DNA from: Escherichia coli | GTDB taxonomy: Bacteria; Pseudomonadota; Gammaproteobacteria; Enterobacterales; Enterobacteriaceae | Strand: one strand, 5' to 3' | Length of the DNA: 64,000 bases | Assembly (NCBI RefSeq): GCF_003334765.1 | Contig: NZ_QOWT01000014.1 | Shown here: piece by piece, positions 1,307 to 54,971 of the stretch | Numbering within the stretch: the first letter of the stretch is position 1 | Layout: each line of letters begins with the position of its first letter | The notes under the pieces: generated by a model | Seen by the model: the letters and a program-made list of their open reading frames with translations, nothing else | What the model was told of the DNA's origin: nothing | The model's database searches: none | Made by a program: the position numbers and the translations under genes

Positions 1307-1321
1307 ACTTCGCATTTGCAG

Positions 1322-1402
1322 GCAGGATAAGGCGTTTACGCCGCATCCGGCATTTGAGCAGGATGCCTGATGCGACGCTGATAGCGTCTTATCAGGCCTA
1401 CA
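1322..1402. repeat. REP/BIME palindromic elements (two inverted REP copies)
   Basis: ggataaggcgtttacgccgcatccggca and tgcctgatgcgacgc...gtcttatcaggccta in the cpxA-yiiM convergent gap. Confidence 0.85.
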
Positions 1403-10185: not shown

Positions 10186-10430
10186 ACACTGCCGGATGCG
10201 GCGCGAGCGCCTTATCCGGCCTACGGGTCGGCAACAGTTGTAGGCCTGATAAGACGCGACAGCGTCGCATCAGGCATTGATTGCCGGATGCGGCACAAGT
10301 GCCTTATCCGGCCTACAGGTCGGCAATAGTTGTAGGCCTGATAAGACGCGACAGCGTCGCATCAGGCATTGATTGCCGGATGCGGCGCGAGCGCCTTATC
10401 CGGCCTACGGGTCGTGCATCCGACAACACC
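10186..10430. repeat. BIME: tandem array of about 2.5 units of a 92-bp REP-containing repeat
   Basis: ccggatgcggcgcgagcgccttatccggcctacgggtcggcaacagttgtaggcctgataagacgcgacagcgtcgcatcaggcattgattg repeats starting at 10192, 10284, 10376 with a few substitutions. Confidence 0.9.
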
Positions 10431-44493: not shown

Positions 44494-46317
44494 TTAATCG
44501 TCTTTCGGTGCGCGGTTGGCGCGGCGACGATCGTTTTCCGTCAGGTGACGTTTACGAATACGGATAGAGGTCGGAGTCACTTCTACCAGTTCGTCATCAT
44601 CGATGAACTCCAGAGCTTGTTCCAGAGTCATGCGGATAGGCGGAACCAGAACAACGGCTTCGTCAGTACCGGAAGCACGCATGTTGGTCAGTTTCTTACC
44701 GGTCAGGCAGTTTACAGTCAGGTCGTTAGAGCGGCTATGAATACCGATAATCTGACCTTCGTAAACTTCTGCACCGTGACCGAGGAACAGCTTACCGCGA
44801 TCCTGCAGACCGAACAGCGCGAACGCGACCGCTTTACCCTGACCGTTAGAGATCAGTACGCCGTTCTGACGCTGACCCACTTCACCCGGACGTACGTCGT
44901 CGTAGTGGCTGAAGGTGGAGTACAGCAGACCAGTACCGGAAGTCATGGTCATGAACTCAGAACGGAAGCCAATCAGACCACGGCTTGGGATCACGTAGTC
45001 GAGACGTACGCGGCCTTTACCGTCTGGATTCATGTTTTTCAGGTCGCCTTTACGTTCGCCCAGCGCCTGCATTACAGAACCCTGATGCTGTTCTTCAACG
45101 TCCAGAGTCACGTTTTCATACGGCTCTTGTTTACGACCGTCGATTTCACGGAAGATAACTTTCGGACGGGATACCGCCAGTTCGAAACCTTCACGACGCA
45201 TGTTTTCGATCAGAACAGACAGGTGCAGTTCGCCACGACCAGAAACGCGGAACGCATCGGCGTCTTCGGTTTCTTCTACGCGCAGCGCAACGTTGTGTAC
45301 CAGTTCTTTGTTCAGACGATCCAGGATCTGACGAGACGTTACGAACTTACCTTCTTTACCGCAGAACGGCGAGGTGTTAACGCAGAAGAACATAGAAACG
45401 GTCGGCTCATCAACGGAGAGTGCCGGCAGCGCTTCAACGTTTTGCGTGTCGCAAACGGTGTCAGAAATGTTCAGTTCGCCAAGGCCCGTGATCGCAACGA
45501 TATCGCCAGCTTCCGCCAGATCGGTTTCGATACGTTCCAGACCGAGGTGGCCCAGCACTTTACCGACTTTCGCGTTGCGGGTTTTGCCTTCGCTATCGAT
45601 GATAGTGACCTGCTGGTTCGGCTTCACTTTACCGCGCTTGATGCGGCCAATGCCGATAACGCCAACATAGCTGTTGTAATCGAGCTGAGAAATCTGCATC
45701 TGGAACGGACCGTCAAGGTCAACGTCCGGCGCAGGAACGTGGTCAACAATCGCCTGGTACAGCGGGGTCATGTCTTCCGCCATATCTTCGTGGTCCAGAC
45801 CCGCGATACCGTTCAGCGCAGAAGCGTAAACGATCGGGAAGTCCAGCTGCTCGTCGGTCGCGTCGAGGTTAACGAACAGATCGAATACCTGATCCACAAC
45901 CCAATCAGGACGCGCGCCAGGGCGGTCAACTTTGTTGATAACAACAATCGGCTTCAGGCCGTAAGCAAACGCTTTTTTGGTTACGAAGCGCGTTTGCGGC
46001 ATCGGGCCGTCAAATGCGTCAACCACCAGCAGCACTGAGTCTACCATGGACATTACACGTTCAACTTCACCACCGAAGTCGGCGTGCCCCGGGGTATCAA
46101 CGATGTTGATACGGTAATCATTCCATTTGATAGCGGTGTTTTTCGCGAGGATGGTAATCCCACGCTCTTTCTCCAAATCGTTGGAGTCCATCACGCGCTC
46201 TTGGGTTTCGGCACGAGAGTCGAACGTACCGGATTGTTGGAGCAGCTTGTCTACCAGGGTGGTTTTACCATGGTCTACGTGCGCGATGATGGCGATATTA
46301 CGCAATTTTTCGATCAC
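44494..46317 (-). CDS. typA: Ribosome-associated translational GTPase TypA/BipA
   Basis: 607 aa; G1 motif [21 protein letters not shown]-like domain architecture. Confidence 0.96.
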
Positions 46318-46468
46318 AACTTTGCCTCAGGCATTAGAAATAGCGCGTTATTGTACACGGATTAATCGCACTACAAAACAGGATCACAAACATCCTCCGC
46401 AAACAAGTATTGCAGAGTCCCTTTGTGATCGCTTTCACGGAGCATAAAAAGGGTTATCCAAAGGTCAT

Positions 46469-46559
46469 TGCACCAACATGGTGCTTAATGTTTCCATTGA
46501 AGCACTATATTGGTGCAACATTCACATCGTGGTGCAGCCCTTTTGCACGATGGTGCGCA
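46469..46559 (+). promoter_or_regulatory. NtrC enhancer sites upstream of glnAp2
   Basis: TGCACCAacaTGGTGCT (46469-46485), aGCACtAtatTGGTGCA (46501-46517), TTGCACgatGGTGCGCA (46543-46559) match TGCACCA-N3-TGGTGCA; centred about -140 and -108 from the predicted start. Confidence 0.7.
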
Positions 46560-51090: not shown

Positions 51091-51194
51091 TGCCGGATGC
51101 GGAGAAAGTCGTAGGCCTGATAAGACGCGACCAGCGCCGCATCAGGCATCATGCTCAGATGCCTGATGCGGCGTAAACGCCTTATCCGGCCTAC
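51091..51194. repeat. BIME (three REP copies)
   Basis: tgccggatgcggagaaagtcgtaggcctgataagacgcgaccagcgccgcatcaggca ... gatgcctgatgcggcgtaaacgccttatccggcctac. Confidence 0.88.
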
Positions 51195-51305: not shown

Positions 51306-52679
51306 TTAAATCACCCGAGAGAACTGCTGCATCCGCGCTTTCTGGCGCAGATAGGTATCAAAGCACATGCAAATGTTGCGGATCAGCAAGCGACCTTTCG
51401 CCGTCACCTGTATTCCCTTCTCATCCACATCCACCAGCCCATCTTTTGCTAACGGGGCGAGCAGCTTGAGATCTTCCGCAAAGTAATCAGCGAAGTGCAA
51501 ATCCCACTGTTTCTCAATAGGGGCGTAATCCAGACGGAAGTTGCAGATGAGCGACTTAATCACATCGCGGCGAATACAGTCATCACGCGTTAGCGCAATA
51601 CCACGCCACAGCGCATTGCCTTGTTCATCCACTTGCTGATAGTACTGCTTCAACTCTTTCTGGTTCTGCGCGTAGCAGTCGCCAATCATGCTGATGGCGG
51701 AAACGCCCATCCCCAGCAGATCGGTATCGCCCTGAGTGGTGTAGCCCTGGAAGTTACGATGCAGCACGCCTTCACGCTGGGCCACCGCCAGCTCGTCATC
51801 CGGACGGGCAAAGTGATCCATACCGATAAACTGATAGCCCGATTGCGTCAGGAAGGCGATGGTTTCCTGCAGGATATCGAGTTTTTGCTGCGGACTCGGC
51901 AGGTCAGCATCTTTGATTTTGCGCTGAGCAGCAAAAATGGTCGGCAGATGCGCGTAGTTAAAGACACTCAGACGATCGGGGTTCAGCTCCGCCACACGTT
52001 TCAGGGTAAAGGCGAAACTCTCCGGCGTCTGTTTCGGCAGGCCGTAAATCAGGTCGATGTTGGTGGAGGTAAAACCAATCTCACGCGCATGGTTAAGCAG
52101 TGCAAAGATGAACTCTTCATCCTGCTCGCGGTTAACCAGACGTTGCACTTCTTTGTTGAAGTCCTGCACGCCCATGCTCAGGCGATTAAAGCCTTCGGCG
52201 CGTAAATGATCGAGTACATCCAGTTCGATTTCCCGCGGATCGACTTCGATCGAAATCTCCGCATCGGCATTGAACTGGAAGTTTTCGCGCAGCAGCTTCA
52301 TCAGGCGGCTGATTTGCGCTTTATTCAGATACGTCGGCGTTCCGCCGCCCCAGTGCAATTGGCTGACGTGACGCCCGGCGAACAGCGGTGCACGATGGAC
52401 GATTTCTTGCTCCAGCGCGTCCAGATACTGATCGGCCTTGTGCTGCTGGCGAGTAACAATCTTATTGCAACCGCAGAAGTAACAAAGCTTATGGCAGAAC
52501 GGGATATGTACGTAGAGAGATAATGGACGCTCAGGATAGCGCGCCACGGCTTGTAAAAACGCCTGTTCGCCGAAGTCTTCTGAAAACTCCAGCGCGGTCG
52601 GGTACGAGGTGTATCGTGGCCCGGAATAGTTATATTTCTGGATCAGGGCCAGATCCCAGTCGATTTGCTGTACAGACAT
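51306..52679 (-). CDS. hemN: Oxygen-independent coproporphyrinogen III oxidase (radical SAM)
   Basis: Start at MSVQQIDWDLALIQKYNYSGPRYTSYPTALEF; radical-SAM CxxxCxxC (CHKLCYFCGC); 457 aa. Confidence 0.93.
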   Translation of the reverse strand: MSVQQIDWDLALIQKYNYSGPRYTSYPTALEFSEDFGEQAFLQAVARYPERPLSLYVHIPFCHKLCYFCGCNKIVTRQQHKADQYLDALEQEIVHRAPLFAGRHVSQLHWGGGTPTYLNKAQISRLMKLLRENFQFNADAEISIEVDPREIELDVLDHLRAEGFNRLSMGVQDFNKEVQRLVNREQDEEFIFALLNHAREIGFTSTNIDLIYGLPKQTPESFAFTLKRVAELNPDRLSVFNYAHLPTIFAAQRKIKDADLPSPQQKLDILQETIAFLTQSGYQFIGMDHFARPDDELAVAQREGVLHRNFQGYTTQGDTDLLGMGVSAISMIGDCYAQNQKELKQYYQQVDEQGNALWRGIALTRDDCIRRDVIKSLICNFRLDYAPIEKQWDLHFADYFAEDLKLLAPLAKDGLVDVDEKGIQVTAKGRLLIRNICMCFDTYLRQKARMQQFSRVI

Positions 52680-52867: not shown

Positions 52868-53377
52868 TTAGTTGCCCCGCAGCAGACGCATCATGTCTTC
52901 TTGCTTCTCGTCTTCTTCCTCTTCTTCGTCATCGTCATAAGAGAGGCCGAGTTTCTGCATCAACTCATCAATACGATCCAGTTTAGCATCCACCCAGGAT
53001 TGCTCTTCGGCACTCAGGGTTTCGCCTGCTTCCAGACGTTCCAGCAGCGCATCCAGACGCTCATCCGTTTCCAGTAATTCCAACTCCGCCTGCGGTGAAA
53101 GCATAGGTTTCTCACTCTTCGGTTTGTGCTGTTTGGTGACTTTTTCAGTCACGCCCAATGGAATAGGGGTTTTACTGCCAATACGTGGATCTTTTGGTGC
53201 GTTCTGGCCTTTGCTGCCTGACGTGGTGTTTCCGCCCGCTGCGCGGCTGCCCGGCGCATGACCACGACGTTTTTTCTGACGCTTGCGATCACGAGCTTCC
53301 TGATCCAGCTCCTCGCGTGTTTTTCGACGCGCTTTTGCATGACCTTTGCTGCGTGAGTTTGAAGATGATGGTTTCAT
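52868..53377 (-). CDS. yihI: Der GTPase-activating protein YihI
   Basis: Track ORF 52868..53440; start at [24 protein letters not shown]...; very basic N-terminal half, polyacidic C-terminal tail ([14 protein letters not shown]); 169 aa. Confidence 0.88.
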
Positions 53378-53444
53378 AATGGTTCGTCTTTTAGCCGTTT
53401 TATTCAGTATAGATTTGCGGCGGAATCTAACAGAAAGCAAGCAA

Positions 53445-53480
53445 AGAAAAAAGGCGACAGATTACTCTGTCGCCTTTTTT
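53445..53480. terminator. Bidirectional intrinsic terminator (3' end of csrC)
   Basis: A-run, GGCGACAG-attact-CTGTCGCC hairpin, T-run. Confidence 0.8.
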
Positions 53481-53688
53481 CCTGACTCATAACCCTTAAC
53501 GGGTCTTACAATCCTTGCAGGCCGCCAACACACCCTGTTTTTCCTTTAGCCGGAACAATCCGTGTTGATTCCATTTCCGTTTAATTACGTCTCCGGACGT
53601 TTGTCTTCCTGACAATCCTCTGTCTTCGCCTCCTGGCGCTCCTGACCCTCATCCTGAGTCATTGTTCCTGTTAGCGTCCTCGCTCTAT
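53446..53688 (-). ncRNA. csrC: CsrC small RNA (CsrA-sequestering)
   Basis: Minus-strand sequence beginning ATAGAGCGAGGACGCTAACAGGAACAATGACTCAGGATGAGGGTCAGGAGCGCCAGGAGG... carries about 14 GGA motifs, mostly in (C)AGGA context, and ends at the terminator; lies in the yihI-engB gap. Confidence 0.8.
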
Positions 53689-53958
53689 GGGTGCTACTTT
53701 ACGCCTTTGCTTTAAACAAACAATCAACCGCCATCAGTATTTGCACATTTTCAGAGTTTTATATAAAAGCAATTCACTGATTTATATAGCTTATTTGACA
53801 TGCATCGCAGAATTTTCTCTGCTATTTCGCATAAAGACTATCGGCAATGTCTCACAAAGCGTATGGCTTTTACTTACAACGCTCACGCCGAAAAATCCGC
53901 CTTTTATTATGGTTCAGGTATAATCGCCACAAAGCTTTGACTGACGGAGACGACCGCT

Positions 53959-54591
53959 TTGACTAATTTGAATTATCAACAGACGCATTTTGTGATGAGT
54001 GCGCCTGATATTCGCCACCTACCTTCCGATACCGGAATTGAAGTGGCTTTTGCAGGCCGTTCCAACGCAGGTAAATCCAGCGCGCTGAACACGCTGACTA
54101 ACCAGAAAAGCCTGGCTCGTACCTCAAAAACCCCAGGGCGCACCCAGCTTATCAACCTGTTTGAAGTGGCTGACGGCAAGCGTCTGGTTGACTTGCCTGG
54201 GTACGGTTATGCGGAAGTCCCGGAAGAGATGAAGCGCAAATGGCAGCGTGCGCTCGGCGAATACCTCGAAAAACGTCAGAGCCTGCAAGGTCTGGTGGTG
54301 CTAATGGATATTCGCCATCCGCTGAAAGATTTGGATCAGCAGATGATTGAGTGGGCGGTAGACAGCAATATCGCCGTTCTGGTGCTGCTGACCAAAGCGG
54401 ACAAACTGGCAAGCGGCGCACGTAAAGCGCAATTGAATATGGTGCGTGAAGCTGTACTGGCGTTTAACGGTGATGTGCAGGTTGAAACGTTTTCTTCGTT
54501 GAAGAAACAAGGCGTGGACAAGCTGCGGCAGAAACTGGATACCTGGTTTAGCGAGATGCAGCCTGTAGAAGAAACGCAGGACGGCGAATAA
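53959..54591 (+). CDS. engB: Ribosome-biogenesis GTPase EngB (YihA)
   Basis: 210 aa with TTG start; G1 motif GRSNAGKSS. Confidence 0.9.
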
Positions 54592-54716: not shown

Positions 54717-54825
54717 TAAAAAACGCCCCAGTCATTACTGACTGGGGCGGCTAAAATATTCAGCCAAATCCGATTACGTGAAGTAAAAGGTCTGAAAGAT
54801 AGAACATCTTACCTCTGTACCCTAC
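54717..54825 (-). ncRNA. spf: Spot 42 small RNA
   Basis: Minus strand reads GTAGGGTACAGAGGTAAGATGTTCTATCTTTCAGACCTTTTACTTCACGTAATCGGATTTGGCTGAATATTTTAGCCGCCCCAGTCAGTAATGACTGGGGCGTTTTTTATT, ending in a terminator hairpin plus T-run. Confidence 0.9.
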
Positions 54826-54971
54826 GCGACTAACTTTACTCTTTTTTGTTCAGTTCAGAAAGCACTTTTTGTAATTTTTTTTCAGTTGTTGCATAGGAAT
54901 TTCTAATAGCCATCACAAAACGTGACAGCTTATGTTGCTTACTTACGAAAAAAGGCATGTTCAGGCGAATC

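Follow-up and report, generated by a model that had tools for sequence, protein, structure and literature searches.

The 581-bp gap between yihI (-) and yihA/engB (+) in the 64,000-nucleotide stretch of Escherichia coli DNA analysed here (the window) contains a minus-strand transcription unit that is, with near certainty, csrC, the gene of the second CsrA-sequestering small RNA of E. coli, the same gene and not a lookalike. Indeed, a scan of the whole window with Rfam 15 returned a match to the CsrC model RF00084 at positions 53435-53688 (-), with a score of 278.7 bits (gathering score, 61; E = 6e-88), and in cmscan this match spans model positions 1-255 of 255, is untruncated and carries maximal posterior probabilities. 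Furthermore, the 3501 bp between positions 51724 and 55224 agree with E. coli K-12 MG1655 at every base (100% identity), the matching K-12 stretch (NC_000913.3 4049500-4053000) being the reverse complement of this part of the window. The K-12 ncRNA csrC, recorded as 'small regulatory RNA CsrC' (b4457, 4051036-4051281), maps to positions 53443-53688 (-) as an exact match of 246 nt. All 246 nt of the K-12 CsrC (b4457, RF00084) are thus identical here, with no difference, and the surroundings of the K-12 gene are shared as well, namely yihI, yihA/engB, spf, the upstream UvrY repeat and the terminator. The identity of csrC is already known, and the RNA itself holds nothing new.

On the basis of the K-12 annotation and the Rfam match, the csrC transcript (53443..53688, -) is 246 nt long, with its +1 at 53688 and its 3' end in a U-tract. 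Its length is reportedly often quoted as 245 nt. An earlier note, made from the letters of the window, had claimed that the gap holds CsrC, and this claim is borne out by the full-length RF00084 match, the K-12 identity and the position between yihI and yihA/engB. The note had drawn a minus-strand unit of about 245 nt at 53446-53688: the strand and the 5' end at 53688 are exact, but the 3' end, which is annotated at 53443, was placed 3 nt short, position 53446 being the C directly after the U6 tract. The reference for the K-12 CsrC is Weilbacher et al. 2003 (cited in PMC7652899).

When the interval 53435-53688 was used as a query, every one of the 5426 complete E. coli genomes in the collection gave a csrC match, with at least 95% identity in 5425 of these copies. 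The same search returned 64 further matching places beyond one copy per genome, two of them on plasmids, and a csrC copy that is only 87% identical in NZ_CP148581.1.

In most RefSeq E. coli genomes, PGAP treats this sequence as a degraded protein-coding gene. A 'hypothetical protein' label lies under the match in all 40 of the E. coli genomes listed, and NZ_AP018808.1, for example, carries a RefSeq pseudo-CDS ('hypothetical protein; frameshifted; internal stop', 53496-53662, -). However, this annotation itself requires a frameshift and an internal stop to read the interval as coding, and no ORF of at least 40 aa is present there. None lies wholly within 53493-53686, which agrees with the remark in the earlier note that csrC is invisible to the ORF track. 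In addition, the curated K-12 record is an ncRNA, and an RNA is indicated by the match to the covariance model over its full length, by hairpin conservation and by the steady number of GGA motifs (see below). A coding pseudogene was therefore rejected, on the absence of such an ORF, the K-12 ncRNA record and the RNA evidence, and is extremely unlikely. The curated K-12 record is the only one that names the ncRNA, the other RefSeq/PGAP records examined carrying the pseudogene label, and the PGAP pseudo-CDS over csrC is probably a propagated annotation artefact.

The question also arises whether the RNA, instead of CsrC, could be its paralogue CsrB or a different RNA of the CsrB/Rsm clan (CL00106), since the architecture (repeated GGA hairpins followed by a terminator) and the Rfam clan are shared. 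Where matches of one clan overlap, cmscan retains just the top-scoring family, and the best family on this interval is CsrC, matched over model positions 1-255. The locus is, moreover, exactly that of K-12 csrC, and a count of 14 GGA fits CsrC, whereas E. coli CsrB, which is encoded at a separate locus, has 22 (PMC7652899). The clan competition in cmscan and the locus led to the rejection of this alternative, whose probability is minute, and the assignment to csrC is retained. CsrC is also described, in one preprint, as having fewer GGA motifs than CsrB. In other respects the E. coli CsrB (RF00018, CL00106) resembles CsrC: both RNAs present many GGA in short hairpins, are transcribed in a UvrY-dependent manner from a far-upstream inverted repeat and undergo CsrD/RNase E-dependent decay. 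The features of CsrB/CsrC-type RNAs that are present here include (i) many exposed GGA, (ii) a noncoding unit with a Rho-independent terminator and (iii) an upstream UvrY/SirA inverted repeat.

The minus strand of 53446-53688 contains exactly 14 GGA motifs, as the earlier note had estimated (about 14), including 10 AGGA and 6 CAGGA; on the plus strand there are two GGA in this interval. Counted on the sequence, the 14 motifs extend from a first G at 53679 to 53480 (-). This number is the maximum over every 243-nt segment of the 64 kb on both strands, the runners-up having 12 and 11, and the minus-strand background is 3.08 GGA per 243-nt segment on average (sd 1.88). The runner-up with 12 GGA (36155-36397, +) lies within the coding sequence of yihQ (sulfoquinovosidase), where the density of GGA is probably an effect of codon or amino-acid composition. 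The RNA consists of 64% A+G. Mononucleotide shuffles of its sequence yielded 7.8 +/- 2.2 GGA, with 137 of 20000 (0.7%) reaching 14, and dinucleotide shuffles yielded 8.9 +/- 2.0 GGA, with 51 of 5000 (1.0%) reaching 14. The excess of GGA over shuffles of the RNA's own composition is thus smaller than the excess over the window, yet it is real.

According to the Rfam consensus structure, six of the 14 GGA motifs (first G at 53679, 53654, 53633, 53618, 53594 and 53514, -) are located in hairpin loops and five (first G at 53668, 53642, 53609, 53578 and 53572, -) in single-stranded linkers, one (first G at 53561, -) is partly paired and two (first G at 53544 and 53482, -) are within stems, that at 53482 being at the base of the extended terminator stem. 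The likely loop contexts put forward in the earlier note are therefore found for 11 of 14 motifs, which are unpaired in the family structure. The contrary picture, that of GGA motifs buried in stems, is not what the structure prediction gave, because most of them are unpaired in this structure, and just 2 of 14 lie in stems. When the single sequence is folded thermodynamically as an ensemble, the mean unpaired probability exceeds 0.7 for just 8 of the 14 motifs, some of the others being buried, and the mean exposure is 0.61 for GGA nucleotides versus 0.42 for the whole RNA. The single-sequence fold has an energy of -83.5 kcal/mol, versus -57.2 +/- 4.0 kcal/mol for dinucleotide shuffles (z = -6.55).

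Orthologues were collected by a scan of contigs with a conserved 16-mer, AGCGCCAGGAGGCGAA, which returned at least 120 loci, 15 of which, among the matches listed, are enterobacterial csrC. About 140 chance matches to this 16-mer are expected in 298 Gb (estimate), and most of the matches are chance occurrences in G+C-rich genomes. At each of the 15 enterobacterial loci among the matches listed, CsrC was matched over its full length, with scores of 140-275 bits. An alignment of 14 sequences, made of 13 orthologues and the window, was then analysed; ten genera are covered, including Escherichia, Citrobacter, Superficieibacter, Enterobacter, Pseudocitrobacter, Pluralibacter, Pseudescherichia and Kosakonia. 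All 14 aligned sequences contain 13-15 GGA in the sense direction and 0-2 in the antisense direction (TCC), and five GGA positions are invariant in 14/14 sequences, two more being kept in 13/14. The hairpins and the terminator are kept across the alignment: the pairs of the family structure are formed in 88.7% of cells, compared with 39-47% after a shift of the 3' partners by 1-3 columns. Changes on both sides are seen for six pairs, for example in the first hairpin (AU/GC at 7:6); the covariation support is modest because the CsrC family is highly conserved. When run without the Rfam structure, RNAalifold recovered the CGCC-AGGA-GGCG, ACGUC-CGGA-GACGU and CCC/GGG hairpins as well as the terminator.

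These data also bear on whether the interval could be a chance purine-rich intergenic stretch devoid of function. Composition does explain part of the GGA excess, as sequences shuffled from an RNA with 64% A+G already contain about 8 GGA. However, 14 GGA are reached in just 0.7-1% of these shuffles, a sense count of 13-15 is held across ten genera with an antisense count of 0-2, the fold has a z-score of -6.55 and the covariance-model match an E-value of 6e-88. A chance purine run was accordingly rejected on the cross-genus GGA count, the conservation of pairs and the covariance-model match, and its probability is practically nil; the interval is read as csrC.

Among the matches listed, the 16-mer AGCGCCAGGAGGCGAA also recurs in eight Pseudomonas species, more than chance would suggest. 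The idea that the Pseudomonas, Vibrio and Billgrantia loci encode Rsm-type RNAs was dropped, no match to an Rfam sRNA family being found there, and the recurrence in Pseudomonas probably corresponds to a conserved coding segment. The RsmX/RsmY/RsmZ RNAs of Pseudomonas and the CsrB/C/D RNAs of Vibrio are, like CsrC, sponge RNAs that titrate CsrA/RsmA homologues, carry GGA in their hairpin loops and are activated by GacA/UvrY-family regulators, but they are different, shorter RNAs and show no sequence match to csrC here.

The transcript ends in an intrinsic terminator (53443..53483, -), located by a terminator scan. From 5' to 3' it is composed of an A6 run (53480-53475), a stem strand GGCGACAGA (53474-53466), a GUAA loop (53465-53462), the opposite stem strand UCUGUCGCC (53461-53453) and a U6 run (53452-53447), followed by CUUU; the stem is 9 bp long and G+C-rich, and the loop has 4 nt. 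Pairing in the terminator reaches 98.6% over the 14 aligned sequences, with one compensatory change (AU to UA) at the top of the stem. The fold has an energy of -31.9 kcal/mol on the minus strand (z -7.6) and of -25.0 kcal/mol on the plus strand (z -6.6), the plus-strand fold being possible because the hairpin is flanked by A and T runs. The earlier note had described a strong bidirectional terminator. Strength and a symmetric fold are indeed found, but no annotated gene converges on it that would make bidirectional use of it: yihI and hemN, to the left of the terminator, are both on the minus strand, so that no convergent gene uses the plus-strand face. The word 'bidirectional' formally fits the shape of the hairpin and is not a demonstrated function.

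The terminator is also central to the possibility that the GGA-rich stretch is the 5' leader of yihI and, instead of being a separate sRNA, has its effect in cis, by read-through into yihI or by CsrA control of that gene. csrC and yihI (Der GTPase-activating protein; 52868..53377, -, according to the RefSeq annotation and its ORF) are on the same strand, with just 65 nt between the 3' end of csrC (53443) and the start codon of yihI (53377). However, a very stable U6 terminator, invariant in the 14 aligned sequences, lies between the two, and the K-12 annotation describes a discrete 246-nt RNA. A pure role as yihI leader is unlikely because this terminator intervenes, and any low-level read-through into yihI would supplement the sponge function, not replace it. 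The leader hypothesis is considered very improbable.

Upstream of the +1, the interval 53689-53800 has a G+C content of 33%, versus 50.6% for the window, which places it in the lowest 2.7% of 112-nt segments. The core promoter was placed by its spacing to the annotated +1 and by conservation. A TAAAGT hexamer (-13..-8; 53696..53701, -) would be the -10 element according to this spacing, and the GTAAAGT that contains it shows no variation among the 12 enterobacterial upstream regions aligned. It is preceded, with a 16-bp spacer, by a -35-like hexamer, TTGTTT (-35..-30; 53718..53723, -), which matches 3 of 6 consensus positions and whose TTGT core is invariant in 12 orthologues. A sigma-70 consensus scan of 53300-54000 detected no promoter at a threshold of 9 of 12. 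Such a weak match to sigma-70 would fit an activator-dependent promoter.

Zere et al. 2015 located phosphorylated UvrY (UvrY-P) on an imperfect inverted repeat of csrC by ChIP-exo and DNase I footprinting (PMC4682653). The published sequence of this binding repeat, TGTGAGACATTGCCGATA, was found in the window at -168..-151 (53839..53856, -), and a TGTAAG half-site from the same study is present 16 bp upstream of the repeat, at -190..-185 (53873..53878, -). The TGT..GA.AT core of the repeat is conserved in 12 orthologues, and of 14 upstream regions searched, 10 contain the half-site. Both published elements are hence present at the stated spacing and conserved, binding and activation themselves being taken from PMC4682653. 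The earlier note had seen in the AT-rich interval 53689-53800 a response-regulator-activated promoter: the AT-richness and a weak core promoter are found there, but the UvrY repeat and the half-site are located further upstream, outside this interval. As for CRP sites, no full TGTGA-N6-TCACA sequence is present in 53689-53958, where the sole TGTGA is inside the UvrY repeat. In comparison with csrC, whose repeat has a weaker symmetry, the UvrY repeat of CsrB is a nearly perfect palindrome (PMC4682653).

Sequence conservation revealed a further box, AATCAGTGAATTG (-94..-82; 53770..53782, -), that lies downstream of the UvrY repeat but upstream of the core promoter and resembles the IHF consensus. 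It fits the pattern WATCA[A/G/T]NNNNTTR, which is near the IHF consensus WATCAANNNNTTR, with position 6 relaxed post hoc to A/G/T. Of 12 csrC upstream regions from enterobacteria, 11 retain the ATCA....TT of the box, and its flanks drift. Zere et al. 2015 reported no apparent IHF site in csrC and found that ihf deletions do not lower CsrC; in their comparison, the CsrB promoter requires IHF and csrC expression does not (PMC4682653). The box is absent from the published accounts of csrC that were found. It may possibly be a real site for an architectural or regulatory protein, although this is rather unlikely, and it is offered as a lead, not a finding, because the relaxation of position 6 was chosen after seeing the data.

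On the other side of this upstream region, the divergent neighbour yihA/engB (53959..54591, +, according to annotation and ORF) is preceded by a TATAAT (53919-53924, +) that is likely its -10 element, and a GATTATACCTGAAC block at this putative yihA/engB promoter is conserved in orthologues. Beyond yihA, about 1 kb from csrC, lies the gene of Spot 42 (spf; 54717-54835, -), with an Rfam match of 122.8 bits. A Spot 42 match about 1 kb from CsrC was obtained in 13 of the 15 enterobacterial loci scanned, and Spot 42 was not found in the stretch fetched for the Citrobacter werkmanii, Citrobacter sp. Cu233 and Pseudocitrobacter loci. In Salmonella, this neighbouring sRNA increases CsrC levels (PMC7591399), and SirA/UvrY crosslinks near spf (PMC4682653). 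The linkage of the csrC and Spot 42 genes may not be accidental. Elsewhere in the window, the Rfam scan gave further matches above the gathering score, corresponding to an ES222 sRNA, STnc370, a SECIS_3 selenocysteine insertion element and four naRNA4 (REP-like) elements; the coordinates of these matches are 46399-46506 (-), 44441-44509 (-), 19484-19542 (+), 1321-1398 (+), 10243-10405 (-) and 51114-51191 (-).

In terms of mechanism, the locus is a discrete, structured, noncoding minus-strand transcription unit running from the +1 at 53688 to the terminator at 53443-53483, in which most of the 14 GGA are exposed in short hairpin loops and linkers. The sites to which CsrA dimers bind contain GGA, those in hairpin loops being preferred, and CsrB and CsrC sequester CsrA from its mRNA targets by means of multiple GGA sites (PMC7652899). 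That the RNA binds several CsrA dimers and antagonises CsrA in vivo is established in the literature for the same sequence (Weilbacher et al. 2003, cited in PMC7652899). Transcription of csrB and csrC is activated by the BarA-UvrY two-component system (PMC4682653), and phosphorylated UvrY, bound to the -168..-151 repeat, switches on the weak core promoter, which appears to be of the sigma-70 type. This activation is opposed by cAMP-CRP: according to Pannuri et al. 2016 (described in PMC7591399), competition with UvrY is the way in which it represses csrC in E. coli. Finally, decay of CsrC requires RNase E, PNPase and CsrD, the trigger being unphosphorylated EIIA-Glc (PMC5027483, PMC7652899); the published experiments on CsrD-dependent decay were made with this same sequence.

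In summary, the analysis of this locus can be regarded as a positive control, in which a regulatory ncRNA of a kind that ORF-based annotation misses was found and named from the raw sequence. CsrC is a textbook part of the Csr global regulatory system, and the picture of this system is unchanged by the present analysis.
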